Under the pieces are notes generated by a model that ran no database searches, had not been told where the DNA came from, and saw only the letters and a list, made by a program, of their open reading frames with translations. The position numbers were made by a program, and so were the translations under genes. From contig JBHIAH010000083.1 of assembly GCA_046758505.1 (NCBI GenBank), positions 1 through 11,130 on the forward strand: 11,130 nucleotides of DNA, given 5' to 3'. Source of the stretch: Candidatus Methylomirabilales bacterium (GTDB taxonomy: Bacteria > Methylomirabilota > Methylomirabilia > Methylomirabilales > CSP1-5). Shown here piece after piece: positions 1-11,130 of the stretch (within the stretch, counting starts at the first letter, position 1; each line of letters opens with the position of its first letter).

Positions 1-2
1 AT

Positions 3-791
3 CTTGCCAAGGAAATGGGGGTCCTGGCGGTTGGCGTGGTGACCAAGCCCTTCCATTTTGAGGGGAAGGTGCGCATGGCGCAGGCCGAGCGGGGCCTCCA
101 GGAGCTGAAGGAGAGGGTCGATACCCTGATCACCATTCCCAATCAGCAACTCCTGAGCGTGGCCGAGAAGACCACCACCTTCCTCGAGGCCTTCAAGCTG
201 GCGGATGACGTCCTCCGTCAGGCGGTCCAGGGGATTTCTGATCTCATCGTGATCCCTGGGCTCGTCAATGTGGATTTCGCGGACGTCCGGACGATCATGG
301 CCGAGCGGGGGTTGGCCATGATGGGAACCGGATACGCCGTTGGGGAGGAATGCGCCGTCGAGGCGACCCAGCAGGCCATCAACAGCCCTCTCCTGGAGAG
401 TGTCTCGATCGAGGGGGCGCGCGGGGTCCTGCTCAATATTACCGGGGGGCCGGACCTCTGCCTCCACGAGGTCGAGCTGGTCGGACAGACGATCTCCGGA
501 GCCGCCGATCCCGATGCCCACATCATCTTCGGGGCGGTGATCGATGAGCGGATGAACCGCGAGGTGCGGGTGACGGTCATTGCCACCGGCTTTGATGACC
601 AGCAGGCCCGGGCGGGCGAGCAGGCCAAGATCGCCGACATTAAAGCGTACGCGACCAAGGTCGTCGAGCGGCCCACCTATTTGAGGCGTCGGGCCGGGAA
701 GGCGGAGGTGGCCGCGGCGCAGCTGTCGCTGCAAGAGGTGGACGAGGAGGAACTGGACATCCCGACCTTCCTCCGTCGCCAGGCCGATTAG
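3..791 (+). CDS. ftsZ: Cell division protein FtsZ, C-terminal part (5' end lies before the window)
   Basis: Motifs [22 protein letters not shown]7 loop [30 protein letters not shown] and the conserved C-terminal peptide [13 protein letters not shown]. The frame is open from position 3, so the ATG at 15 is internal. Confidence 0.98.
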
Positions 792-946
792 GGGCCCGCA
801 CCGGTCCTCCGGGGTCCCGGCGCGGAGGCGTGCGCGCGCGGCGCATCCATTCACCGCGCGCTCCATGGTGCGGGAGGCGGCGACGCGGCTGTGGCATCCT
901 GGGCAAGGGGGCGGTCCGCGGGTTGACGGGTGGTATAGCGAACCGT

Positions 947-1774
947 ATGGAACTCGCCGACACAGGAATTCGCGAGAGTCTCGAGCCGGGACTGCTGCGG
1001 CTTCCCTCTCTTGAGCAGTTTTCCGTTCGCCTTGCCTTTAGCACCCGGAAGGGTGGGGTGAGCGCCCGGCCCTATGACACCCTCAATCTCGGCCTGAGCG
1101 TCGGGGACGACCCTGCCGCGGTCCACGAAAACCGCCGCCGCTTCTTCACCGCCCTCGGACTCGACCCCTCCCGCATTGTCCGGGTGCGCCAGGTCCACGG
1201 GAACGATGTTTTGGTCGTTGATCGGGCCCTGGCCGGGCAGGCACGGTTCCCCCGACTCCTGTTGGATGATGACTACCTGTACGATGCGATCGTGACCGAT
1301 CTCGCCGGCCTCGGCCTCGCCATCAGCACCGCCGATTGCCTCCCGATCTTTATCGTTGATCCTCGCCATCGCGCCGTCGGGGCGGTCCATGCCGGCTGGC
1401 GGAGCAGCGTGAAGGGCGTCGTCGAGCACGCCCTCAGGACAATGGGCGGCGTCTACGGCACCGACCCGGCGCAGTGCTACGCCGCGCTCGGTCCGGGCAT
1501 CCGAGGCTGCTGTTACGAGGTGGATCAGCCGGTCATGACCGCTGTTCATCGTGCCTGCAAGGAGTGGCAGGCGTGCGTGGCTCCGGCGGGAAGAGATCGG
1601 TGGATGCTGGACCTGGCCCGACTCAACATCGCCCTCCTGCACGGGGGAGGGCTCAGTCCGGATCGGATCATTGACACGGGTCTCTGCACCGCGTGCCGCA
1701 GCGATCTCTTCTATTCATACCGCGCCGAGAAGCTCAAGACGGGCCGGATGATGAGCCTGATCGCCCTCCTGTAG
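947..1774 (+). CDS. pgeF: Peptidoglycan editing factor PgeF / YfiH-YlmD laccase-domain (purine nucleoside phosphorylase-like) protein
   Basis: Motifs FSTRKGGVS..YDTLNLGLSVGDDPAAVHENR, QVHG, TADCLP, AVHAGWR, GPGIRGCCYEV, CTAC, YSYR, GRM. Typical position after ftsZ. Start set at ATG 947 because the 830-946 extension is Arg-rich and lacks family motifs. Confidence 0.93.
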   Translation: MELADTGIRESLEPGLLRLPSLEQFSVRLAFSTRKGGVSARPYDTLNLGLSVGDDPAAVHENRRRFFTALGLDPSRIVRVRQVHGNDVLVVDRALAGQARFPRLLLDDDYLYDAIVTDLAGLGLAISTADCLPIFIVDPRHRAVGAVHAGWRSSVKGVVEHALRTMGGVYGTDPAQCYAALGPGIRGCCYEVDQPVMTAVHRACKEWQACVAPAGRDRWMLDLARLNIALLHGGGLSPDRIIDTGLCTACRSDLFYSYRAEKLKTGRMMSLIALL

Positions 1775-1783
1775 TTCGCGGTG

Positions 1784-1876
1784 GAGGGTTTAGAGTTGAG
1801 AGTTCAGGACTGCGGAATTCAATGATCCAGGCTTTTCAGCCGTCAAATCCGAAATCCGAAATCCGCAATTCGAAAT
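1784..1876. repeat. Intergenic short tandem heptamer repeats
   Basis: GAGGGTT TAGAGTT GAGAGTT (1784-1804), then AAATCCG x3 + CAATTCG + AAAT (1845-1876). TGCGGAATTC (1811-1820) is a 9/10 inverted match to GAAATCCGCA (1858-1867). Confidence 0.8.
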
Positions 1877-1907
1877 GCTCATGGTCACCGGTCATCGGTA
1901 CGCGGCG

Positions 1908-1936
1908 TTGACACTTCCCAGGGCCTCTGTTAGGTT
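1908..1936 (+). promoter_or_regulatory. Putative sigma70-type promoter for yggS
   Basis: TTGACA (1908-1913), 17-bp spacer, extended -10 TGtTAGGTT (TAGGTT 1931-1936), 35 nt before the yggS ATG. Confidence 0.7.
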
Positions 1937-1971
1937 ACCTTCAGGAACGAGTTTCCCCGGGGCGGGGCCCG

Positions 1972-2661
1972 ATGACCATCAAGGAGCGAGTCGAGCGCGT
2001 TCGGGAGGCGATCGCGGCAGCGGCGTTGCGAGTGGGCCGGGACCCGGGAGAGGTTCTCGTGGTGGGCGTGGCAAAGACCTTTCCCGCGCGGGCGGTTCAG
2101 GAGGCGGTCGCCGCCGGCCTCACCGATATCGGAGAGAATCGGGTTCAGGAGGCGAAGGCCAAAATTGCCGAGGTCGGTGCCCCCTGTCGTTGGCACATGG
2201 TTGGACACCTGCAGACCAACAAAGCTCGATTAGCGGTGCAACTGTTTGACTGGATTCAGTCCCTCGATTCCCTGAAGCTTGCCCACGAGGTGGAGAAGGC
2301 GGGGTCCGGGCTTGGACGGCGGGTGAAGACGTTGGTAGAGGTCAATCTCGCCCAGGAATCCAGCAAGACGGGGGTGGGAGAGGCCGAACTCCTCCCGTTC
2401 CTGGAGCAGGCCGGGTCGTTACCGCACGTGAGCATCGAGGGATTGATGGCCATGCCTCCGTTCGATCCAAACCCGGAGGGGGTTCGCCCTTACTTTCAAC
2501 GAATGCGGAGGCTTCGGGACGAGGCCGCCTCACGCTTCCCGCGACTCGGGTTGTCGCATCTCTCCATGGGCATGAGCCACGACTTCGAGGTTGCCGTCGA
2601 GGAGGGGGCGACTGTAGTTCGGATCGGGACCGCCATCTTCGGGCCGCGTCCGGCGAAGTAA
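1972..2661 (+). CDS. yggS: PLP homeostasis protein YggS/PROSC family
   Basis: PLP-binding Lys in VGVAKT, plus IGENRVQEA, WHMVGHLQTNKA, EVNLAQESSKTG, GLMAMPP, LSMGMSHDFEVAVEEGATVVRIGTAIFG. Syntenic with ftsZ-pgeF. Confidence 0.97.
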   Translation: MTIKERVERVREAIAAAALRVGRDPGEVLVVGVAKTFPARAVQEAVAAGLTDIGENRVQEAKAKIAEVGAPCRWHMVGHLQTNKARLAVQLFDWIQSLDSLKLAHEVEKAGSGLGRRVKTLVEVNLAQESSKTGVGEAELLPFLEQAGSLPHVSIEGLMAMPPFDPNPEGVRPYFQRMRRLRDEAASRFPRLGLSHLSMGMSHDFEVAVEEGATVVRIGTAIFGPRPAK

Positions 2662-2663
2662 AT

Positions 2664-2856
2664 GCTAGGAGGCTGGGAAGTTAGAAGGCTAGAACGCTGG
2701 GAGGCGAGGAAACGAGCACGCCAGCACGCTGGGAAGCCAAGAGGCTAGAAAGACAGGGAGATTGCGGCGCTTCCCCTTTTGGCCCTCGGATGTTTTTGGG
2801 GTGTATGCTTCGAAGCCTTCAAGCATTCCAGCCTCCTAGCGTACTTGCCTTCTAGC
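2664..2856. repeat. Inverted array of degenerate 8-bp tandem repeats (consensus ~GCTRGRAR)
   Basis: 12 in-phase octamers at 2664-2759 (gctaggag gctgggaa gttagaag gctagaac gctgggag gcgaggaa acgagcac gccagcac gctgggaa gccaagag gctagaaa gacaggga), a ~49-bp spacer, then 6 reverse-complement octamers at 2809-2856 (ttcgaagc cttcaagc attccagc ctcctagc gtacttgc cttctagc). Confidence 0.88.
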
Positions 2857-2862
2857 TGGCAC

Positions 2863-3174
2863 ATGCGGTTGGATCTTTTCCTCAAAACATCCCGGTTGGT
2901 CAAGCGGCGGGGGCAGGCGAAGGCCTTGTGTGATGCGGGACGGGTCCTGGTCGACGGGTTGCCGGCGAAAGCCGCCCGCCAGGTTCGAGTGGGGAACCGG
3001 ATCACCCTGGACCTTTTCCGGCGCCAGCTGGTGATCGAGGTTCGGGAGATTCGAGGAGTAGGAGGAGGTCGGGGGAAGTCCGCAGCGCTCTACACAGTGG
3101 TGGCGGAGCGACGATCTGGCCGAGGAGCGGCAGAATGGGGAGAGGAGGCGGGTGATGCAAATATTCATGGATAG
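2863..3174 (+). CDS. S4-domain RNA-binding protein, RqcP/YabO (Hsp15-like) family, 103 aa
   Basis: N-terminus [49 protein letters not shown] matches the S4/YabO pattern MRLDKFLKxSRLIKRRxxAKxxxDxGRVxxNGxxAK. The true start is ATG 2863; the upstream extension is repeat sequence. Overlaps the next gene by 20 nt. Confidence 0.88.
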
Positions 3175-3820
3175 CGCCAACGTCAAGATGATCCAGGATG
3201 CCGTGGACCACGGGCTCGTCGATGGGGTGACCACCAATCCATCCCTGATCGCCAAAGAAGGGGCGGACTTTCGGGGGGTGATCGAAGAGATCTGCCGTCT
3301 CGTCCCCGGCCCGGTCAGTGTGGAGGTGGTGGGGAAGACCCACGGGGAAATGATGGCCGAGGGCCGGGAAATCGCCAAGATCGCCGACAATGTCGTGGTG
3401 AAGATCCCCATGCTCAAAGAGGGCCTCCGCGCAGTCCGGGAGCTCACCCTGGACGGCATCCGCGTGAATGTGACGCTGGTCTTCTCGGCCGCGCAGGCGC
3501 TGCTCGCGGCCAAGGCAGGGGCGACATACGTGAGTCCCTTTGTGGGACGCCTGGACGATTATGCCCATGTCGGCATGGATGTCGTTCGGGACATCGTGAC
3601 AATCTACAAAACCTATGCTCTCCCAACGCAGGTCTTGGTGGCCAGCGTCCGGCACCCCCTCCATTTTGTCGAGGCGGCCTTAGCGGGTGCTCACGTGGCG
3701 ACCATCCCCCCCTCCGTCCTTCAGCAGCTGGTAAAACACCCCCTGACCGACGTGGGGCTCGAACGATTCCTGGCCGATTGGGCCAAGGTCCCGCAGGGGG
3801 TCTTCGGCCTCCCCCGGTAG
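3155..3820 (+). CDS. tal: Transaldolase (small FSA/TalC-type)
   Basis: Motifs [31 protein letters not shown] (Schiff-base Lys), [46 protein letters not shown]. Glu in SVEV and Phe in SPFVGR are the transaldolase-type residues (FSA has Gln/Tyr). SD AGGAGG at 3143-3148 favours ATG 3155. Confidence 0.93.
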
Positions 3821-3832
3821 GGTGTGTGATCC

Positions 3833-3868
3833 GGGGTTCCCCTGGGACCCCCCCCTGTTTCATTTTTT
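3833..3868 (+). terminator. Possible intrinsic terminator after tal
   Basis: GGGGTTCC-cct-GGGACCCC stem (one G-U pair) followed after a few nt by TGTTTCATTTTTT. The U-tract is not directly adjacent, so the call is weak. Confidence 0.35.
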
Positions 3869-3870
3869 GC

Positions 3871-3899
3871 TTGACAAGAATAGAACAAGATTTTACATT
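3871..3899 (+). promoter_or_regulatory. Putative sigma70-type promoter for the IclR/CoA-transferase operon
   Basis: TTGACA (3871-3876), 17-bp spacer, TACATT (3894-3899), with an AT-rich tract upstream. Confidence 0.75.
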
Positions 3900-4048
3900 A
3901 TGCACGCCTTTGCAGTTTCGCAGGGGATCAGCCCCCCACACACGTCGTAGACAAATCCTTTTGTATCAGAAAGTCCCGGCAAAGTGCGTAAGACCCTGGT
4001 TATAGGCCCCTTCACAGAGCAAAATCCCGGATAGAAGTAGGCGGGCGG

Positions 4049-4873
4049 ATGTCTCATCGCCGTAAGGAAAAGTCGGAGTACATCGTCCAGTCGGTCGACC
4101 GGGCCTTGGATATCCTGGAGGCCTTCAACTATGAGGAAGAAGAGTTGGGGGTGACCGAGCTGAGTCAGAAGCTGGGGCTCCATAAGAACAACGTTTTTCG
4201 GCTGCTCGCCACCCTGGAATGCCGGGGGTATATCGAGCAGGATAAGCGGACGGGGAACTACCGCTTGGGGATGAAGACCTTCGAGGTGGCCAACATTTTC
4301 CTTCATCATCTGGGGTTGAGGCGTCAGGCCCGCCCCATTTTGGAGGAGCTCGTCAATGGGTGCGATGAAACGGCGTATCTCGCCATCCTGGATGGTCCCG
4401 AGGTCGTGTACGTCCTGATGCATGAGACCTCCCAGACGGTTCGGATTGTCCCGCGCCTCGGGCACCGTCTGCCCGCGTACTGCACCGCCTCTGGGAAGAT
4501 CCAGCTGGCGTATGAATCCCGGGATCATCTGGCCCAGATCTTTGAGGGGCACGTGCTGCAGCGGCACACCGGGAACACCATCGACAACCTTGACAAGCTG
4601 GTCAATCACCTGAAAGAGGTGGCCCGGCTCGGGTACGCCGTGGACAACGAGGAATGGGAAGAGGGGGTCCGGTGTATCGCTGCGCCCGTCAGGGATTACT
4701 CCCGTCGGGTGGTGGCGGGGGTGGGGCTCTCGGGACCCGTCTCTCGGTTTACCATGGAGCGGATCGAGAAAGAACTGGTCCCGCTGGTGAAGGAGGCGGC
4801 ATCCAAAATCTCCCAGCGCCTGGGCTACGAGCTGCATTCCGTCAGCCCCCAGGTCGTGGACGAGAGGAGGTGA
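4049..4873 (+). CDS. IclR-family transcriptional regulator
   Basis: N-terminal HTH VQSVDRALDILEAF...GVTELSQKLGLHKNNVFRLLATLECRGYIEQD...YRLG. Effector domain ETAYLAIL, GHRLPAYCTASGKIQLA, GYAVDNEEWEEGVRCIAAPVRD, GLSGPVSRF. Confidence 0.97.
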   Translation: MSHRRKEKSEYIVQSVDRALDILEAFNYEEEELGVTELSQKLGLHKNNVFRLLATLECRGYIEQDKRTGNYRLGMKTFEVANIFLHHLGLRRQARPILEELVNGCDETAYLAILDGPEVVYVLMHETSQTVRIVPRLGHRLPAYCTASGKIQLAYESRDHLAQIFEGHVLQRHTGNTIDNLDKLVNHLKEVARLGYAVDNEEWEEGVRCIAAPVRDYSRRVVAGVGLSGPVSRFTMERIEKELVPLVKEAASKISQRLGYELHSVSPQVVDERR

Positions 4874-4960
4874 GAGAGAGGAAGGACGGCACCGACAGAG
4901 GGATCCTGCACGAGCAACCGAACAGCTTTACGGCTACTGAGAAAAGGGAGGGAGGTCAGC

Positions 4961-6364
4961 ATGGCAAAGAATTATCCGGTTCTACCATGGCCGGCTGTTC
5001 CGACGCCGACGCCGGACGAGGTCTACAAGGGCGAAAGTGATGCGGCGAAGGAGTACGCCCTGTGGCTCGAGGCCAATCTCCGGCAGAGCGAAAACTTCAA
5101 GAAGCCTGAGGCCTTAGGTAACATCCGGGTCCTCGACTGCACCTCGATGATGATCATCGGCCACTGGTGCTCGTCCCTCTTCTCCGAGTTGGGGGCCGAG
5201 GTCATCATGGTCGAGCCGGCCGGCGGTGATCCACTGCGCAAGGTCAGCCCATTCGGTCGGAAAGAGTACATGTTTACGGATAGCGAGACCGGAGAGGCGG
5301 TGGGGGCGCGGTTCCTGGCGGAGTGTCGGAGCAAGCAGTCGATTACCCTGGACCTCACCAAGCCCGAGGGGCGCGAAATCCTGAAAAACCTCGCCATGCA
5401 CGCCGACGTGATCATCGAGAACGCCCCCCCCGGCCAATGGGATGAGTGGGGGATCGGCTACCGGCAGCTCAGTGAGCTCAACCCCCGGCTGATCTACTGC
5501 TGGGTCGGCCAGCTCGGCCAGTGGGGGCCCCTCAAGGATAAGCCGGGCAACCTCGATCCCACTGCCCAGAACGCCTGCGGCTTCACCCACGGCACCGGGG
5601 CGCCGGTGGCCTTCGGCGGTACGCCGACCCGGTCCGGCTGGTGGATGTGCGACCAGGTGGGCGGCACCGGCGCGGCCATGGGAATCGTGACGGCGCTCTA
5701 CTACAGGGAACGGGTGTCAGGGCGCGGACAGTTCGTGGAAGGGACCGCGGCGGCCGGGGTGATGCGGATCCTCGACTACAACTGGGGTTGGTATGGGGTG
5801 GACGGGAGCATCCGACCTCGCTACGGCAACTGGGATCTTGCCATCAACATTTACGCCGTCAATCCGTGTAAGGACGGGCAGATCATGGTCGGTGGGGGCC
5901 ACGACCGGCTCTGGTACCGGATCTGGCGGACCGTCGGCAAGGATCGGGCCGAGCTCGAGCAGCACATCGTGGAGGACCCCGGGCTCAAGGTGGTGACCGA
6001 CCGGCTGCCGCACTATCGGCAGGTGGAAACGTACACCACACTCTGCGAGTGGATGAAGGATAACACCCGGTCCGAGGCCGAGACCAAGCTCCAGGCCGAA
6101 GAGGTGGCCTCCGGCGGTGTTTCGTTCTTTGATGAGGTCTGCGAGTTCCCCCATTACAAGTACCGGGGGCACCTCGAGATCATCGATGACGTCCTGTACG
6201 GCAAGATCCTCCTGGGGGCCTCCGCCTTCCTCGGCCAGCGGACCCCGGGCCGGGTCAAGTGGATCGGCCGGCCGACCGGCTACGATAACGAGGATGTCTA
6301 CCGCCGGCTGTTAGGCCTCACTAAGGCCGACATGGACGGTCTCAAGAAGAAGGGGGTGATCTAA
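4961..6364 (+). CDS. Family III (CaiB/BaiF) CoA-transferase, subunit 1
   Basis: LGNIRVLDCT...ELGAEVIMVEP.GGDPLR, KQSITLDLTKPEGREILKNLAMHADVIIEN, WGIGYRQLSELNPRLIYC, catalytic-position Asp231 in PTRSGWWMCDQVGG, SGRGQFVE, C-terminal PTGYDNEDVYRRLLG...KKGVI. SD GGAGGT upstream. Confidence 0.92.
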   Translation: MAKNYPVLPWPAVPTPTPDEVYKGESDAAKEYALWLEANLRQSENFKKPEALGNIRVLDCTSMMIIGHWCSSLFSELGAEVIMVEPAGGDPLRKVSPFGRKEYMFTDSETGEAVGARFLAECRSKQSITLDLTKPEGREILKNLAMHADVIIENAPPGQWDEWGIGYRQLSELNPRLIYCWVGQLGQWGPLKDKPGNLDPTAQNACGFTHGTGAPVAFGGTPTRSGWWMCDQVGGTGAAMGIVTALYYRERVSGRGQFVEGTAAAGVMRILDYNWGWYGVDGSIRPRYGNWDLAINIYAVNPCKDGQIMVGGGHDRLWYRIWRTVGKDRAELEQHIVEDPGLKVVTDRLPHYRQVETYTTLCEWMKDNTRSEAETKLQAEEVASGGVSFFDEVCEFPHYKYRGHLEIIDDVLYGKILLGASAFLGQRTPGRVKWIGRPTGYDNEDVYRRLLGLTKADMDGLKKKGVI

Positions 6365-7707
6365 TGGCGACCATGTCCTTCGAGCAGTACTGCCGCGAGG
6401 TCTTTGACCCGAAAAAGGCGTTTGCCAAGCCGGAGCCGCTCAAGGGGGCGCGGTTTCTGAGCTGCACGCAGTACATCCTCGGTCCCTCCTGCGCCAATTA
6501 TTTGGCCGAGCTCGGGGCCGAGGTGATCAAGGTCGAGCTGCCCCGGCGGGGGGAGCCGATGCGCCACACCACCCCCTTCAACGAGCCCAAGCTCTACCCC
6601 TGCTCCAAGTGGTTGCCGGACACGGGGACCGGGCTCGGCTTCTTCGGGGCCAACCACAACGAGTACTTCCTCTCGGTCGATTTCCACAAGCCGGAGGGGC
6701 AGGAGATCATGCGGATGCTCGGCGCCAAGTCGGATGGCGTCGTGGAAAACTACCGGGCCGGCACCTTCGACCGGTGGGGGATCGGCTACCGGCAACTCAG
6801 CCAGATCAATCCCCGGATCATCTACCAGTGGTTGGGGGGCTTTGGCGGCTGGGGCCCGGGCCGGAAGCGGGCCAGCTACGACATCCTGGGCCAGGCCCAG
6901 GGGGGCTGCTTCTCGGTGACCGGCTGGCAGCTCGATAAGGGAGGCCTTCCCTCCAAGCAGACCATCTGGATCATGGATTACTGGGGGGGGATGATGGGGG
7001 CCTTCCAGATCATCGCCTGCATGTACTGGCGGGATCACATCTCCGGCCAGGGCAACTTCATGGAGTACTCCCAGGTGCAGGGGGCCCAGCGGCACCTCTC
7101 CGACTGCATTGCGCTCTACGGCCGTCACGGGCTCGTTGCGCAGCGGTTCGGTAATTGGGACATCCTCCTCTGCGTTCACGGGATCATCGCCTGCGGCAAA
7201 TCGTCGTATCCCGGCTCGAAAAACCCGCAGGAGCAGGAGGTGGGCTACATCCTCGTCAGCGCGTACACCGACGCCGACTTCGCCAAGCTGATGAAGCTCA
7301 TCAAGAAGGACGACCTGGCGAAGAAGTACGCCACGCACGATGAGCGGGTCAAGGCAGAGAGCCAGTACGAGATCTACCCGGCCCTCGAGGAGTGGGCCAA
7401 GGACAAGACCAAGGAGCAGGTCCGGGATATCCTGAACAAAGAGGGGATCAACAACCAGCCGGTCTGGAACTCGAAGGAGGTCTCGACGCAGGAGCACTTC
7501 CACCTTCGGGGGGAGCTTGAGTGGCTGGATGATCCGACCTTCGGGGACCTCCAAAGCCAGGGGCCTGCCTTCCATCTGTCCGACTCCCCGCCCCGCCACA
7601 AGTGGGCCTTCAAGCCGGTGGGGGCCGACAACGAGTATATCTTGGGCAAGCTCTGTGGCTTCTCCAAGACCAAGATCGCAGAGCTCGAGGCGGACGGGGT
7701 CATCTAA
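6364..7707 (+). CDS. Family III (CaiB/BaiF) CoA-transferase, subunit 2
   Basis: PLKGARFLSCTQYILGPSCANYLAELGAEVIKVE, DGVVENYRAGTFDRWGIGYRQLSQINPRIIY, RASYDILGQAQGG, catalytic-position Asp205 in IWIMDYWGG, SGQGNFME, PVGADNEYILGKLCG...GVI. TAATG stop/start overlap with subunit 1. Confidence 0.93.
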   Translation: MATMSFEQYCREVFDPKKAFAKPEPLKGARFLSCTQYILGPSCANYLAELGAEVIKVELPRRGEPMRHTTPFNEPKLYPCSKWLPDTGTGLGFFGANHNEYFLSVDFHKPEGQEIMRMLGAKSDGVVENYRAGTFDRWGIGYRQLSQINPRIIYQWLGGFGGWGPGRKRASYDILGQAQGGCFSVTGWQLDKGGLPSKQTIWIMDYWGGMMGAFQIIACMYWRDHISGQGNFMEYSQVQGAQRHLSDCIALYGRHGLVAQRFGNWDILLCVHGIIACGKSSYPGSKNPQEQEVGYILVSAYTDADFAKLMKLIKKDDLAKKYATHDERVKAESQYEIYPALEEWAKDKTKEQVRDILNKEGINNQPVWNSKEVSTQEHFHLRGELEWLDDPTFGDLQSQGPAFHLSDSPPRHKWAFKPVGADNEYILGKLCGFSKTKIAELEADGVI

Positions 7708-7736
7708 GGCAGCGCTGACGGGAAGGAGGAACGCGC

Positions 7737-8153
7737 ATGACAGACTTCAAACAGTGTCACCTGATTCTGGAGTGTGCCAAGTGCTCGATGCTCAACTACA
7801 TGGACCCCTTCACCTTCTGGAACTTTTCGGGGAAGACCAAGTGTGCGGGGTGTGACGCGGTCTACGCGGTCACGTACTCCAATGGGCAGAAGATGAAGGG
7901 CCCGGACGCGGCTGAGGGGAAGCCGGATCGGCTGCCCGGGTTCGCCCAGACCAAGGATTTCAAGACCCAGGTTACGACGTCGGGCAAGGTGAGCCCCCCT
8001 TCGTACGCCCGGGACCCCGAAAATAAGCACGGACCGACGTACAAGAATGTCCGGGGCAACCTGGTGGCGGCCGGAAAGCTATCGGCCGCGGACCTGGTGG
8101 GGAGTCGCGCTCGGTTCATCGCCGAGCGGACGCCCTATAAGCCGGCGTCGTAG
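7737..8153 (+). CDS. Hypothetical Zn-ribbon protein (CxxC-x19-CxxC), 138 aa
   Basis: Strong SD AAGGAGG before ATG 7737; C13AKC16 and C36AGC39; GC3-rich codons like its neighbours; 29 nt after the transferase stop. Confidence 0.85.
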   Translation: MTDFKQCHLILECAKCSMLNYMDPFTFWNFSGKTKCAGCDAVYAVTYSNGQKMKGPDAAEGKPDRLPGFAQTKDFKTQVTTSGKVSPPSYARDPENKHGPTYKNVRGNLVAAGKLSAADLVGSRARFIAERTPYKPAS

Positions 8154-8236
8154 GCGAAGGTGCGGGGGCGCTCGGGATGGGGCGCCTCCGCCTTCCGTGG
8201 GTCTGCTTGTGACTTGACAGAGAGGAGGCATGCGGA

Positions 8237-8449
8237 ATGGCAAAAGGGACCTGGCCGACCGAAACGTATCCCTTTGGGTGTCCCCACTACGCGCGGGCGC
8301 TCGATCCCTATATTGCGCACGTGTACTGGGGCTACGATGTGGTGAACGACTGGCCGTATCAGAAAATCGTTCCCAAGGGGAGCGAGCCCAAGGAGTGTGA
8401 TTACTGCAAGGGGACGGCCCCGATTCGGAAAGGGTTTCCCTTCGAGTAG
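8237..8449 (+). CDS. Hypothetical 70-aa aromatic-rich microprotein with CxH..CxxC
   Basis: SD AGGAGG (8223-8228) 8 nt before ATG; C15-P-H17 and C54-D-Y-C57; protein-like composition; followed by a strong hairpin. Confidence 0.75.
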   Translation: MAKGTWPTETYPFGCPHYARALDPYIAHVYWGYDVVNDWPYQKIVPKGSEPKECDYCKGTAPIRKGFPFE

Positions 8450-8470
8450 CTGTACCTCATCGAGGGATGG

Positions 8471-8510
8471 TAAACACATCACGACCGCCCCGGCGGTCGT
8501 GATGTGTTTA
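8471..8510. terminator. Perfect 19-bp inverted repeat (probable terminator or processing hairpin)
   Basis: TAAACACATCACGACCGCC-cc-GGCGGTCGTGATGTGTTTA with a T-rich 3' end (GTGTTTATGTTT), 21 nt after the stop at 8449. Confidence 0.7.
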
Positions 8511-8522
8511 TGTTTCGGTCCG

Positions 8523-8551
8523 TTGACGGATGTGTGTTCGCGTGCTAGGGT
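8523..8551 (+). promoter_or_regulatory. Putative sigma70-type promoter for the Trx-like protein/CoA-ligase unit
   Basis: TTGACG (8523-8528), 17-bp spacer, extended -10 TGcTAGGGT (TAGGGT 8546-8551). Confidence 0.6.
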
Positions 8552-8601
8552 GAAGTGTCTGCTTCATTCCCAGCTTTTCTTCAGCCAAAAAGGAGGTCGT
8601 G

Positions 8602-8976
8602 ATGAAGGTCGAGTTTTATTACAGCAGCAAACATGCAGTCGGGTCCCAGTTCCCGTGTGATAATCAAAAGGCCCTCGACCTGTGCAAGCAGTTACAGGCA
8701 AAGGGGGTCGCCGTCAAGACGCAGGACTGTGGAGAGGAGGCGGCTGCCTTCATGACGTACAATGCGGCGGTGACGGGGCCCCCTGCGGCCAAGCGCCCGG
8801 TCTTCGGGGCCAAGGGAGCGTTGGAGGAGGATTTTGGCAAGACGGTCCCGGCGCTGCTCATCTTCGAGAAGGAAGGGGACCGATATCCGACCGAGGTCTT
8901 TCCGCGGTCGGATCGGGAGCTCAGTAAGCTCGTCGGCATCGAAGAGGCCCTCCAGAATCTGCTGAATCAGGCCTAG
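8602..8976 (+). CDS. Hypothetical protein, possible thioredoxin/glutaredoxin-like fold without CxxC, 124 aa
   Basis: SD AGGAGGT (8591-8597) favours ATG 8602 over GTG 8599. beta1-like KVEFYYS, helix NQKALDLCKQLQAKGV, strand VAVKTQD and a Grx-like cis-Pro motif GKTVPALLI. The ORF is well supported; the fold is an inference. Confidence 0.8.
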   Translation: MKVEFYYSSKHAVGSQFPCDNQKALDLCKQLQAKGVAVKTQDCGEEAAAFMTYNAAVTGPPAAKRPVFGAKGALEEDFGKTVPALLIFEKEGDRYPTEVFPRSDRELSKLVGIEEALQNLLNQA

Positions 8977-8992
8977 GGAAGGAGGAGGCGTC

Positions 8993-10657
8993 ATGGGAAA
9001 AATCCCGGAAGGATATCTTCCCTCAAAGGAGCTGTGGCCGACGCGGACCTACACGCTCCCCGAGTTCCAGGCCTACCCTCAAAAATTCAACAGCACCGAG
9101 GAGTTCCTGGACAAACAGGTGACTGCCGGGAGAGGGGATCGCGTCGCCATCCTCTTTGAGGATAAGAAGGTCCCCTATAAGGCACTGCTCGGCATGGTGA
9201 ACAAACTCGGGAGCAGCCTGAAGGCCTTGGGCATCGGAGAGGCGGACCGGGTCGCCCTGCGCGCCCCGAATATTCCCCCCGCCCTGGTGACGAATCTTGC
9301 CGTCCTGAAGATTGGCGCCGTCTTCCTCCCGACATCCGGCCTCTTCTCGCGGGCCGAGATCGCCCACGTCTTCAACAATGCAGAGGTCAAGGCGGTCGTC
9401 GTGGCGGCTGCGTTGCTCGAGGAATTGGAGAAGGCGAGACCCGACCTCAAAACCATGCAACATATCATCGTGCTCGGGGGCACGCCCGAGCAGCAGGCCG
9501 CGTGTAAGCAGAAGGGCTATCTCCTGTACCAGGAGCTTCTCGATGGCGGGCAACCGGAGTGTGACCCGGTCCGCCGCGATCGGATGGATGTCTCCGTCCT
9601 GCTGTACACCTCCGGCACCACGGGTCTCCCCAAGGGGACGGCCCATTTTCTGGAAGAGGCCCTCATCGTTCCGGACAGCTTCGGCAAGCACTGCTGGGGG
9701 GTCACGGAGAACGATGTCATCCTGAGTGCCGCTCCGATCGCCATGGCGGCCGGGTACTCCGCCGTAGCCACCATCCCGTACCGGTTCGGGGCGGCGGTTT
9801 CTATCTTTCCCCGGTTCACCCCCGAGGGGATGTTGGAGCAGATTCAAAACCATAAGGCGACGATCCTCTCGGCCTTGCCGACGGCCTACCGGAAGATGCT
9901 TCAGGTCCCGGACGCCGAGAAGAAGTTCAACCTGAGTTCCCTCCGGATCTGTACGGGTGGGGGGGAGTCGCTGACGGCCAAGACCTACCACGACTGGAAG
10001 GCCAAGTTTGGTCAGGAGATCTTCGAGGGGCTGGGCACTACGGAGATGATGTTCGTCTTCATCTCGTCTGCGGCGACGAAAAAGGTCAAGCCCGGCTCCA
10101 TCGGTCCGGCGATCCCGGGATACGAGGTCAAGGTGATCAACGAGGAGGGGCAGGATTGCAAGCCGGGCGAGACGGGACAGCTCGTGGCCCGGGGCCCCAC
10201 GGGGACTATCTACTGGCGCGATCCCGAGAAGCAGCGCTCCGTCGTCAAGGACGGCTGGTGTCGGGCCGGTGACATGGTCACCATGGACGAGGATGGCTAT
10301 ATCTGGTTCCTCTCGCGCGAGGATGACCTGATCAAGTCCTCCGGCTACCGGATCGGCCCGGAAGAGATCGAGGATGTCCTCGTCACCCACCCAGCCGTGG
10401 CGGATGCCGGGGTGGTCGGGGTTCCGGACGCGGTGATGGGGCAAAAGACCAAGGCCTACGTCCAGCTCAAGGCGGGCCAGCAGGGCTCGGAGGCTCTCGA
10501 GCAAGAGCTGATCGAATTCTGCCGCGGCAAGGTGGCGGTCTACAAGCTCCCGCGGGTGGTGGAGTTCATTGACAAGATGCCACGGGCCCCTGGGCCGGGA
10601 GGCCCGGGGACCGGGAAGCTCCTTCGGCGCGTCTTGAGGCAGCGGGAGACAGGATAA
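8993..10657 (+). CDS. AMP-forming acyl/aryl-CoA ligase, 2-aminobenzoate/benzoate-CoA ligase-like
   Basis: A3 YTSGTTGLPKG, A5 EGLGTTE, KPGSIGPAIPGYEVKV, A7/A8 AGDMVTMDEDGYIWFLSREDDLIKSSGYRIGPEEIE, A10 TGK(542)LLR. The N-terminus (LPSKELWP..TLPEF..PQKFNSTEEFLDKQVTAGRGDR..RVALRAPN) resembles the AbmG-type pattern. SD GGAGGAGG. Confidence 0.92.
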   Translation: MGKIPEGYLPSKELWPTRTYTLPEFQAYPQKFNSTEEFLDKQVTAGRGDRVAILFEDKKVPYKALLGMVNKLGSSLKALGIGEADRVALRAPNIPPALVTNLAVLKIGAVFLPTSGLFSRAEIAHVFNNAEVKAVVVAAALLEELEKARPDLKTMQHIIVLGGTPEQQAACKQKGYLLYQELLDGGQPECDPVRRDRMDVSVLLYTSGTTGLPKGTAHFLEEALIVPDSFGKHCWGVTENDVILSAAPIAMAAGYSAVATIPYRFGAAVSIFPRFTPEGMLEQIQNHKATILSALPTAYRKMLQVPDAEKKFNLSSLRICTGGGESLTAKTYHDWKAKFGQEIFEGLGTTEMMFVFISSAATKKVKPGSIGPAIPGYEVKVINEEGQDCKPGETGQLVARGPTGTIYWRDPEKQRSVVKDGWCRAGDMVTMDEDGYIWFLSREDDLIKSSGYRIGPEEIEDVLVTHPAVADAGVVGVPDAVMGQKTKAYVQLKAGQQGSEALEQELIEFCRGKVAVYKLPRVVEFIDKMPRAPGPGGPGTGKLLRRVLRQRETG

Positions 10658-10808
10658 GCCAAGGCCTGGCCCTTCGATTTATACGTTCGATGATGAACGT
10701 ACTCCCTCAGGAGTTGCTGGTGAGGGAGCAAAGGTGTTCATCATACGTGTAGGAATGCGGCACGGTATTTGCGAATCAAAGCACGAGGGCTGCACGAATG
10801 AGGGAAAA

Positions 10809-10978
10809 AGCAGTCAGCGGTCTGCTGTCAGCGGCGACAGGCCAACGGCTAGAACGCTGGACAGCGCGAACGCGAGGATGCTGAGAGAATTATCAGTCTT
10901 TGGCCTTTCAGTCCTGCGAGCCTCCCAGCATTCCAGCGGCTGGTTGCTGACGGCTGAGTGATAGCTGACGGCTGACTG
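10809..10978. repeat. Nested inverted 7-mer/8-mer tandem-repeat element (long hairpin)
   Basis: Outer heptamers agcagtc agcggtc tgctgtc agcggcg pair with (g/t)gctgac units; 10811-10826 versus the reverse complement of 10963-10978 matches 14/16. Inner octamers gctagaac gctggaca gcgcgaac gcgaggat gctgagag face ctttcagt..ctcccagc attccagc. Confidence 0.85.
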
Positions 10979-11038
10979 GTGTTTTTAGGGGAGCACTCCG
11001 GAGAGTGACCCCGCAGGAATCGAGAGGCAAGAAAGGGG

Positions 11039-11074
11039 AGGGGCCCGGCACTGTCGGGGCCCCTTTTCTATTTT
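11039..11074 (+). terminator. Intrinsic (rho-independent) terminator
   Basis: AGGGGCCC-GGCAcTGTC-g-GGGCCCCT stem followed by TTTCTATTTT. An A-rich tract upstream (AAGAAA) may make it bidirectional. Confidence 0.8.
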
Positions 11075-11130
11075 GGGGTCTGTTGCATTTTCGGTGCAGT
11101 CCGACCTAGGGAAATTTCCCGCCAAGATAC

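Follow-up and report, generated by a model that had tools for sequence, protein, structure and literature searches.

What reaction calls for two different coenzyme A (CoA) transferases encoded end to end and followed by three small proteins of no recognized family? The question is raised by a stretch of 11,130 nucleotides from a Candidatus Methylomirabilales bacterium (contig JBHIAH010000083.1 of assembly GCA_046758505.1, positions 1 to 11,130 of the forward strand; hereafter the window), whose closest named relative is a Candidatus Methylomirabilis metagenome-assembled genome at ~89% protein identity. A first-pass annotation, made from the sequence alone, saw seven co-oriented genes there, and all seven open reading frames (ORFs) are where it placed them (Table 1). 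They encode an IclR-family regulator, the transferase chains CTa and CTb, proteins of 138, 70 and 124 amino acids (aa), and an AMP-forming acyl-CoA ligase. The three small proteins have no match to a Pfam or NCBIfam family at E 0.1. As the best explanation of the whole, we propose that CTa and CTb act together with metal-binding subunits to place CoA on what is likely a hydrophobic monocarboxylic acid, with the ligase priming the reaction; we rate this as slightly better than an even bet. The module is likely a multi-subunit enzyme that has so far gone undescribed: our literature searches, which subscription papers mostly fell outside of, found no published account of it (proteome supplements may list the genes) and no described pathway with this gene set, in agreement with the first-pass annotation.

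Judged by profile and catalytic residue, the two chains belong to family III of the CoA-transferases, and the pair is a member of neither the BbsEF nor the Frc type. The family profile PF02515 matches both over its full length (272 bits for CTa and 256 bits for CTb, versus a cut-off of 23); the two share 34% identity. The catalytic Asp of solved members aligns with Asp231 of CTa and Asp205 of CTb, and neither residue varies in the 38 aligned rows for its chain. Across 172 distinct transferase rows, the residue is kept in 164; the eight rows without it all represent the same chain of an additional pair, which is found in loci of the Rokubacteriales type. Family III enzymes use an Asp-anhydride ping-pong chemistry. 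Neither chain reaches an NCBIfam equivalog (the highest score is 165 of 442 bits). For CTb, the top NCBIfam rows are formyl-CoA transferase models, which fall far under their cut-off (for TIGR03253, the two chains score 104 and 154 of 504 bits). CTa and CTb also carry N-terminal extensions and insertions, some of which a predicted third subunit would bind (see below). In a tree of 32 transferases, the 13 CTa-type and 13 CTb-type rows form separate clades (support of 100 for each in the Shimodaira-Hasegawa-like approximate likelihood ratio test), and the two clades show mirrored subfamilies, so the CTa/CTb pair is probably old; this was a quick version of the tree, in which the joins between deep clades are unsure. 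We also considered a link to the propionate CoA-transferases of Syntrophobacter and rejected it, as the accessible parts of the published accounts describe those enzymes as family I (PMC5947623, PMC8691401, PMC10579422).

The first-pass annotation suspected that the small proteins are extra subunits of the transferase, and proposed checking whether their genes travel with this transferase clade in other genomes. They do, so the absence of co-occurrence that it named as a refutation is not what is seen. A first search with the 138-aa protein gave 112 homologues, and a profile built from these was used to retrieve loci (80 from metagenomes, the best among 572 confirmed matches, plus 30 from genomes). 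Gene order was counted in 114 loci, leaving out L006 (a chance match) and L108 (the window itself). The gene for CTb lies directly 5' of the gene for the 138-aa protein in 108 of the 110 loci with enough sequence, and a gene for a small Cys protein lies 3' of it in 106 of 111 informative loci. Next in order come the gene for the 124-aa protein, which appears to have a thioredoxin (Trx) fold (100 of 105 informative loci), and the ligase gene (78/82). In the five loci that lack the small and Trx-fold genes at their usual place, a second transferase pair has been inserted; longer stretches of these five have a fused small/Trx-fold gene farther on, with the ligase gene following where the contig extends. 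(The count for CTa upstream, 104/104, is invalid and was not used, as the CTa query also matches CTb.) Among 201 Methylomirabilota genomes, the 138-aa family was found in 39, CTa in 45, both in 36, and neither in 153. In the phylum of G201, a genome that carries two subfamilies of the module, 8 of 61 genomes had a match, two of them marginal. A plasmid collection held generic CoA-transferases only, the best at ~30-33% identity.

Contrary to what the first-pass annotation had assumed, the seven genes are not a single fixed unit. Two further subfamilies, seen in genomes of the Desulfobacterota type and, in some carriers, as paralogues, have the order CTa-type, CTb-type, zinc ribbon (the 138-aa family), and small four-Cys protein (the 70-aa family), and in place of the Trx-fold, ligase and IclR genes they have a PAS/sigma-54 activator, a protein with a metallo-beta-lactamase fold, and other, uncharacterized proteins. 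One such paralogous operon (L117, L118, L137, L138, L144-L146) encodes the transferase pair, a zinc ribbon of 155-161 aa, the small four-Cys protein, proteins of ~100 and ~140 aa, a metallo-beta-lactamase-fold/TPR protein, and often a PAS/sigma-54 activator (in L145, the small gene is absent from the gene caller's list). G201, G202, G112 and G254 each have two subfamilies. From these comparisons of gene order and sequence, the invariant core is the two transferases, the zinc ribbon, and a small protein predicted to resemble the high-potential iron-sulfur proteins (HiPIPs); the ligase and the Trx-fold protein are subfamily-specific, as is the IclR regulator, a lineage-specific accessory whose orthologue at >60% identity is present in 16 of 54 long loci. 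Distant paralogues of the zinc ribbon occur in cultured organisms: Geoglobus ahangari (GAH_01562), Desulfacinum infernum, D. hydrothermale, and Desulfosoma caldarium. In the Rokubacteriales-type loci (L119-L128), the zinc-ribbon gene precedes the inserted second transferase pair. After this extra pair there is often a gene for a small protein that is secreted or in the membrane, and small toxin-antitoxin-like gene pairs break the operon in L119, L120 and L127.

We predict that the 138-aa protein is a third subunit that clamps CTa and CTb together across clade-specific segments. In this family, Cys13, Cys36 and Cys39 are invariant and Cys16 is conserved in over 90% of 65 rows. Its model has a confidence (pLDDT) of 87 and consists of a beta ribbon and a long extended tail. 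A fold search with this model gave no match with E <0.001 or Z >=5, and no solved structure stands out as a relative; among the weak rows are the LysW and ZitP zinc ribbons (Z 2.5-2.9, with LysW at 2.9), and there is no Pfam match to DUF35. When the 138-aa protein was modeled with residues 5-446 of CTa and 2-428 of CTb, the predicted complex scored 0.76, versus 0.00 for the best of three controls, and replacing CTa wiped out the score. Among solved complexes, 116 of 157 reached this mark, as did 2 of 215 mismatched pairs, a calibration that is rough for a three-chain prediction with its own alignments. The runs share at least 79% of their contacts, with a pLDDT of at least 74 for the partner. 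In the model, residues 21-28 and 68-69 of the 138-aa protein pack on CTa 352-363, and the tail touches CTb 71-88, 285-289, 387-397 and 417-421. Since no solved structure is clearly related to the 138-aa protein, the prediction is unlikely to recall a solved complex. For this protein, then, the suspected role as an extra transferase subunit is backed by the modeled complex.

The 70-aa protein belongs to a family for which we predict a HiPIP-like fold, and it is a likely fourth subunit that would cap the heterodimer. The family has a common core and several sets of ligands: CxxC...GxC...C (four Cys are present in many orthologues), Cys-x2-His-x4-Cys...C, and the type in the window, which has Cys15, His17, Asp34, Cys54 and Cys57 in place of the four-Cys set. 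For the fold searches we used a four-Cys orthologue (L003:2039-2209; model pLDDT 77). The top 5 of 10 Foldseek rows were the small subunits HpdC, BssB and Mas, at weak scores (E 1.7-6.9; template-modeling (TM) score 0.52), and all five rows listed by VIA were the same kinds of small subunit and one HiPIP, again at weak scores (Z 2.2-3.5, with root-mean-square deviations of 2.5-3.2 over 42-44 residues). HpdC, BssB and Mas are small subunits of glycyl-radical enzymes (GREs). Searching the sequences in the PDB with the 57-aa orthologue and its alignment found nothing significant, and there was no sequence-level match to the small subunits of GREs. A GRE (PF02901) was not found in the bacterium's own genome by a search that was positive in 3 of 14 control genomes, and there was no PFL-like GRE among the recurrent neighbors of the module. 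The HiPIP-like gene follows the zinc-ribbon gene even in the subfamilies with no Trx-fold gene or ligase. The 138-aa and 70-aa families share a similar short LDP motif. These two proteins might dock at putative pseudo-symmetric sites of the heterodimer. Three loci (L039:5640-6068, L046:10426-11328 and L118:8543-9046) encode a small protein with a long in-frame N-terminal extension that is rich in Lys, Ala and Arg and resembles histone H1.

The first-pass annotation called the 124-aa protein Trx-like, which agrees with a comparison between predicted models: its ESM Atlas model (pLDDT 0.61) gives TM scores (by query) of 0.51-0.55 to models of SH3BGR, ArsD and glutaredoxin. The protein has no CxxC, and one Cys is conserved in 96% of 98 rows. 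The ESM Atlas features gave unnamed clusters only.

The ligase offers a clue to the substrate. Its adenylation motifs are intact (P-loop, GxGxTE, GD, and the C-terminal Lys), and its best solved relative is an anthranilate-CoA ligase (PDB 4wv3; E 1.8e-79), with benzoate-CoA ligases also matched. The earlier description of it as aryl-CoA-ligase-like stands for the overall sequence but not for the pocket, and we did not find ring-degrading genes (BcrB, Oah or BoxB) in the bacterium's own genome. Where a benzoate ligase has Phe, Tyr, His and Ile, this ligase has Met251, Ala253, Phe354 and Val355, and Gly348 replaces the Trp of acetyl-CoA synthetase; we take these positions to line the substrate pocket, as in the benzoate and acetyl-CoA ligases with which we compared them. 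The pocket segments read APIAMAAGY and TEMMFVF, versus AKLFFAYGL and TEMLHIF, and relatives of the window ligase have close variants; the aromatic pocket (FFAYG or FFTFG with TEMLH) is not present in the window ligase, which has AMAAG and TEMMF. The score against TIGR02262 is under the cut-off (332 of 375 bits). Because the pocket residues are hydrophobic and Gly348 replaces Trp, the sequence suggests that the substrate is a hydrophobic monocarboxylate that is larger than acetate and is not necessarily benzoate. OFA-type transporters of the major facilitator superfamily (MFS), which are found in 12 of the 54 long loci, would fit an imported acid. At 10576-10620 of the window, the ligase gene has a Gly/Pro-rich insertion before the catalytic Lys542, which is not in the L003 homologue or in the solved ligases.

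We propose that CTa and CTb form an interlocked family III heterodimer in which both Asp sites are kept. The zinc ribbon would clamp the heterodimer and the HiPIP-like protein would cap it. The first thioester would come from the ATP-dependent ligase, and the complex would transfer CoA to the acid, taking it from a downstream acyl-CoA, probably by Asp-anhydride ping-pong chemistry at the transferase sites, as in other family III enzymes. The metal subunits would be structural or gating and not redox-active, since the 70-aa family changes its metal ligands but keeps its non-Cys core, and by analogy to the small subunits of BSS and MASS.

Several observations weigh against this proposal. A plain CoA-transferase needs no metal subunits, and their retention is not explained. 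The copy of the 70-aa protein in the window lacks two of the four Cys; the fold matches of its family, each of them weak, come from an orthologue; and the family is found fused to the Trx-fold protein. The two subfamilies have no such ligase by the core, so priming by the ligase is not general. A conserved hairpin and a possible second promoter split the Trx-fold and ligase genes from the core, and no downstream enzymes are consistently linked to the module. As for co-occurrence, related loci are non-independent samples, and 9 of the 45 genomes with CTa lack a match to the 138-aa family (several of these are at contig ends).

If the metal subunits do more than hold the complex together, then the module could be a self-contained conversion of one acid to another, with two live sites that form an internal CoA relay and with Fe-S and zinc/iron subunits that aid an isomerase, lyase or redox step. 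We think that this is improbable. It would fit with the retention of Asp in both chains despite their low identity, with the metal subunits adjoining the pair in every subfamily inspected, and with beta-oxidation genes not being consistently linked; AMACR and MCR, which have family III folds and other chemistry, are among the PDB matches; and AAA+/vWA genes, U32-family genes (in 23 of 54 long loci), and uncharacterized proteins recur nearby. However, the ligands of the 70-aa family swap freely (four-Cys, Cys-His-Cys-Cys, or three-Cys), as would be expected of a structural site more than of a tuned redox center. Also, no flavoprotein or ferredoxin partner is linked to the module, and close orthologues of the U32 genes are present in five genomes of genus g3 that lack it, so we rejected U32 as an obligate part. 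(A pattern search for the U32 Cys motif had no match in five sequences and is uninformative.) The broader idea is of a class of four-chain enzymes in which a zinc/rubredoxin-type ribbon and a HiPIP-like [4Fe-4S] protein, a combination of accessory subunits otherwise known from GREs, cap a family III heterodimer with two different live sites and serve a new metal-dependent transformation of CoA esters, in a pathway found across anaerobic and groundwater bacteria and archaea; this also strikes us as improbable.

The alternatives about the substrate seem weaker. The relatives of the ligase suggest that the module activates benzoate, anthranilate or a substituted relative, and that enzymes encoded elsewhere break down the aromatic ring anaerobically, similar to BbsEF or PhtSab. 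In families f9 and f10, a BcrB-like gene is present in 11 of 16 carriers of the module versus 35 of 126 other genomes, and most of these carriers have the second pair with an Asp-less chain, as in BbsEF; all of these BcrB-like matches are under the family cut-off. In contrast, there is no BcrB-like gene in the 14 and 18 genomes of families f1 and f2, which are rich in carriers, and neither BcrB nor BoxB was found in the bacterium's own genome (96.8% complete). Oah had no match at E 1e-60 in the 201 genomes, which is weak evidence as the controls were blank too. The pocket residues of the ligase also argue against an aromatic acid, and the accessible part of the report on Geoglobus ahangari describes that archaeon as lacking genes for benzoate degradation (PMC4600277). 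We consider an aromatic acid doubtful. The substrate might instead be a C1-C2 acid such as oxalate, glycolate or formate, in a variant of the Frc/Oxc system. Besides the formyl-CoA transferase models that top the list for CTb, some loci have OFA-type MFS transporters, glycolate-oxidase-type genes, isocitrate lyase, or ADP-forming acyl-CoA synthetases as neighbors, though these are not constant. But no oxalyl-CoA decarboxylase scored over the cut-off in the bacterium's own genome (the best Oxc score was 256 of 739 bits), and we rejected a link to the nearest thiamine-pyrophosphate (TPP) enzyme, which is Oxc/HACL-like, as it had no match at E 1e-110 in 7/7 carriers from genus g3 or in 7/7 carriers from Desulfobacterota. 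The hydrophobic pocket of the ligase, without the Trp that closes the pocket of acetyl-CoA synthetase, also disagrees with such a small acid, and we think that this alternative is very unlikely. Finally, the small proteins could be co-transcribed helpers, with the 70-aa and 124-aa proteins serving the ligase, assembly, regulation, or electron transfer to the U32 proteins. The two are fused in 17 of 99 distinct loci, as counted by a script (L065 and L114 also carry the fusion), and U32 genes are often nearby. We consider this the least probable of the alternatives: the 138-aa protein passes the complex prediction, and HiPIP-like genes keep their place after the zinc-ribbon gene in subfamilies with neither a Trx-fold gene nor a ligase. 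Our preferred explanation remains a CoA-transferase with additional metal-binding subunits.

Table 1. Genes and candidate regulatory elements of the module, in window coordinates
Feature	Position	Strand	Details
Sigma-70-type promoter candidate, TTGACA-17-TACATT	3871-3899	+	10/12 consensus matches
IclR-family regulator	4049-4873	+	274 aa; PF09339 and PF01614
CTa, family III CoA-transferase chain alpha	4961-6364	+	467 aa; PF02515 E 8e-81; Asp231
CTb, family III CoA-transferase chain beta	6364-7707	+	447 aa; PF02515 E 8e-76; Asp205
138-aa CxxC-x19-CxxC zinc-ribbon (or rubredoxin-type) protein with long tail	7737-8153	+	
GC-rich hairpin between the 138-aa and 70-aa genes	8165-8190	+	z -2.74; 2/200 shuffles as good
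70-aa protein of the putative HiPIP-like family	8237-8449	+	Family alignment; model of four-Cys orthologue
Perfect 18-bp hairpin, then T-rich run	8471-8510	+	z -8.99
Second promoter candidate, TTGACG-17-TAGGGT, weak	8523-8551	+	Read off the sequence; below scan threshold
124-aa protein with predicted thioredoxin/glutaredoxin fold, without CxxC	8602-8976	+	Atlas model
AMP-forming acyl-CoA ligase	8993-10657	+	554 aa; PF00501 and PF13193
Terminator-like hairpin and T run	~11031-11074	+	z -3.97; 0/200 shuffles as good

The regulatory features of the window are mostly as the first-pass annotation described them. Strong Shine-Dalgarno sites were reported for most genes, and we find purine-rich GGAG or AGGAG motifs before 5 of the 7 starts; there is no such motif at the start of the IclR gene, and the start of CTb overlaps the stop of CTa. 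The ORFs and Pfam also bear out that the seven-gene unit contains no dehydrogenase, hydratase, thiolase, decarboxylase or transporter. Of the two promoters that were suggested, the one 5' of the IclR gene has its -35 box and spacer kept in all four relatives whose aligned stretch reaches that far, though it is one of 2 promoter-like sites that a scan found in the window, versus 2.0 expected by chance; the one before the Trx-fold gene can be read in the sequence but failed the scan. The perfect hairpin between the 70-aa and Trx-fold genes, which the first-pass annotation overlooked, is likely a terminator or attenuator: its arm motif, CACG(A/G)(C/T)(C/T), is present in 63 of 82 loci in which these two genes are separate and in 0 of 17 in which they are fused. 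The downstream terminator that had been noted is present as a hairpin with a T run, 370 nt 3' of the ligase, although a terminator scan did not list it. Rfam had no match anywhere in the window, including the 8471-8510 hairpin and the gap after the ligase. This gap (10657-11030) contains repeated GCTGAC- or GGCTGA-like words, and similar low-complexity spacers are at 1775-1880 and 2660-2860. Upstream of the module, the window contains ftsZ-like, laccase-domain, YggS-like, S4 and transaldolase genes.

Beyond the window, the locus probably continues into another contig of the same genome (C99). The reverse strand of C99 opens with 55 bases that are identical to 11021-11075 of the window, after which the two diverge (the window's end, 11021-11130, runs past this point); the divergence beyond the terminator may be an assembly branch, a repeat or an insertion. 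This strand carries an IclR-like gene and, at L136:433-2789 and 3765-7156, three tandem U32 genes, a TPR protein and a 451-aa protein, the same set that follows the ligase in L001, L007 and L008, so the 451-aa, TPR and U32 genes probably sit directly 3' of the window. In genus g3, where 7 of 18 genomes carry the module, the 451-aa protein co-occurs with it; in genus g6 this protein also occurs where the module is absent. Another family, cl5 (proteins of ~110-135 aa), follows the distribution of the window's subfamily: among 76 genomes picked by hand, it was present in 31 of 39 carriers, in 1 of 33 non-carriers, and in 0 of 4 carriers of other subfamilies. In the bacterium's own genome, the cl5 gene spans the junction of contigs C31 and C99 (C31:26664-26818 and C99:1-242, or L136:3-242); elsewhere it is found at L004:5013-5417 and L085:10560-10943, and it lies inside the operon in L075, L084 and L085. 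These proteins have an invariant Glu, His and Trp near the end, and a search of PDB sequences with their alignment found nothing significant. Thioesterase genes are found in 6 of 54 long loci. Genes for an AAA+ ATPase and a vWA-domain protein, a chaperone-like pair, adjoin the module in L013, L014, L018, L020, L023, L134 and L117 (1788-3800); bss operons also have a gene pair of this type.

The module marks an organic-acid pathway in about a fifth of the sampled Methylomirabilota (39/201) and in Desulfobacterota. If our proposal is correct, then HiPIP-like and zinc-ribbon subunits on an unrelated, non-radical enzyme would provide an independent test of their roles as clamp, gate or electron carrier. 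The distant paralogues of the zinc ribbon in cultured Desulfacinum, Desulfosoma and Geoglobus make it feasible to look for these proteins by growth-substrate proteomics.

Among known systems, the transferase pair shares the PF02515 fold and the catalytic Asp with the homodimers Frc, SUGCT, YfdE and CaiB, but differs from them in its N-terminal extensions and insertions and in NCBIfam scores that are far under the cut-offs. Two-chain or non-standard family III enzymes are also known, such as SmtAB (the succinyl-CoA:L-malate transferase), Mct and DddD; the Mct model (TIGR04253) scores just 26 of 725 bits. BbsEF (PDB 9fn0), which matches at E 3e-25, is similar in that two different family III chains are encoded adjacently, and the first-pass annotation had compared the pair to it. 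However, chain A of 9fn0 lacks the Asp and chain B has it, whereas CTa and CTb both retain it, so the pair is not of the BbsEF type; a single Asp-less chain occurs only in the extra pair of the Rokubacteriales-type loci. 9fn0 has only two chains listed among the matches, to which the module adds its predicted metal subunits, and we know of no accessory metal subunits in BbsEF. None of the genes for aromatic beta-oxidation or ring reduction that go with BbsEF-type enzymes are among the module's neighbors. The ligase resembles 4wv3, 2v7b and 4eat, its closest solved relatives, in its adenylation motifs but not in its pocket segments. An acyl-CoA enzyme with a zinc-finger subunit has a precedent in the BbsAB thiolase. 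The 70-aa family resembles the small subunits of GREs (HpdC or HPAD gamma, BSS beta and gamma, and MASS beta, gamma and delta) in its predicted HiPIP-like fold, at weak scores, and in the four-Cys spacing of many orthologues; here, the partner would be a CoA-transferase instead, and no GRE was found in the genome. The accessible part of a review on these enzymes describes the small subunits as HiPIP-like proteins that cover hydrophobic patches and are thought to be mainly structural, and regards as enigmatic what their iron cofactors do (PMC13450708). According to the same part of that review, MASS combines HiPIP-like and rubredoxin-like subunits (PMC13450708), and the operon that we describe seems to be alike.

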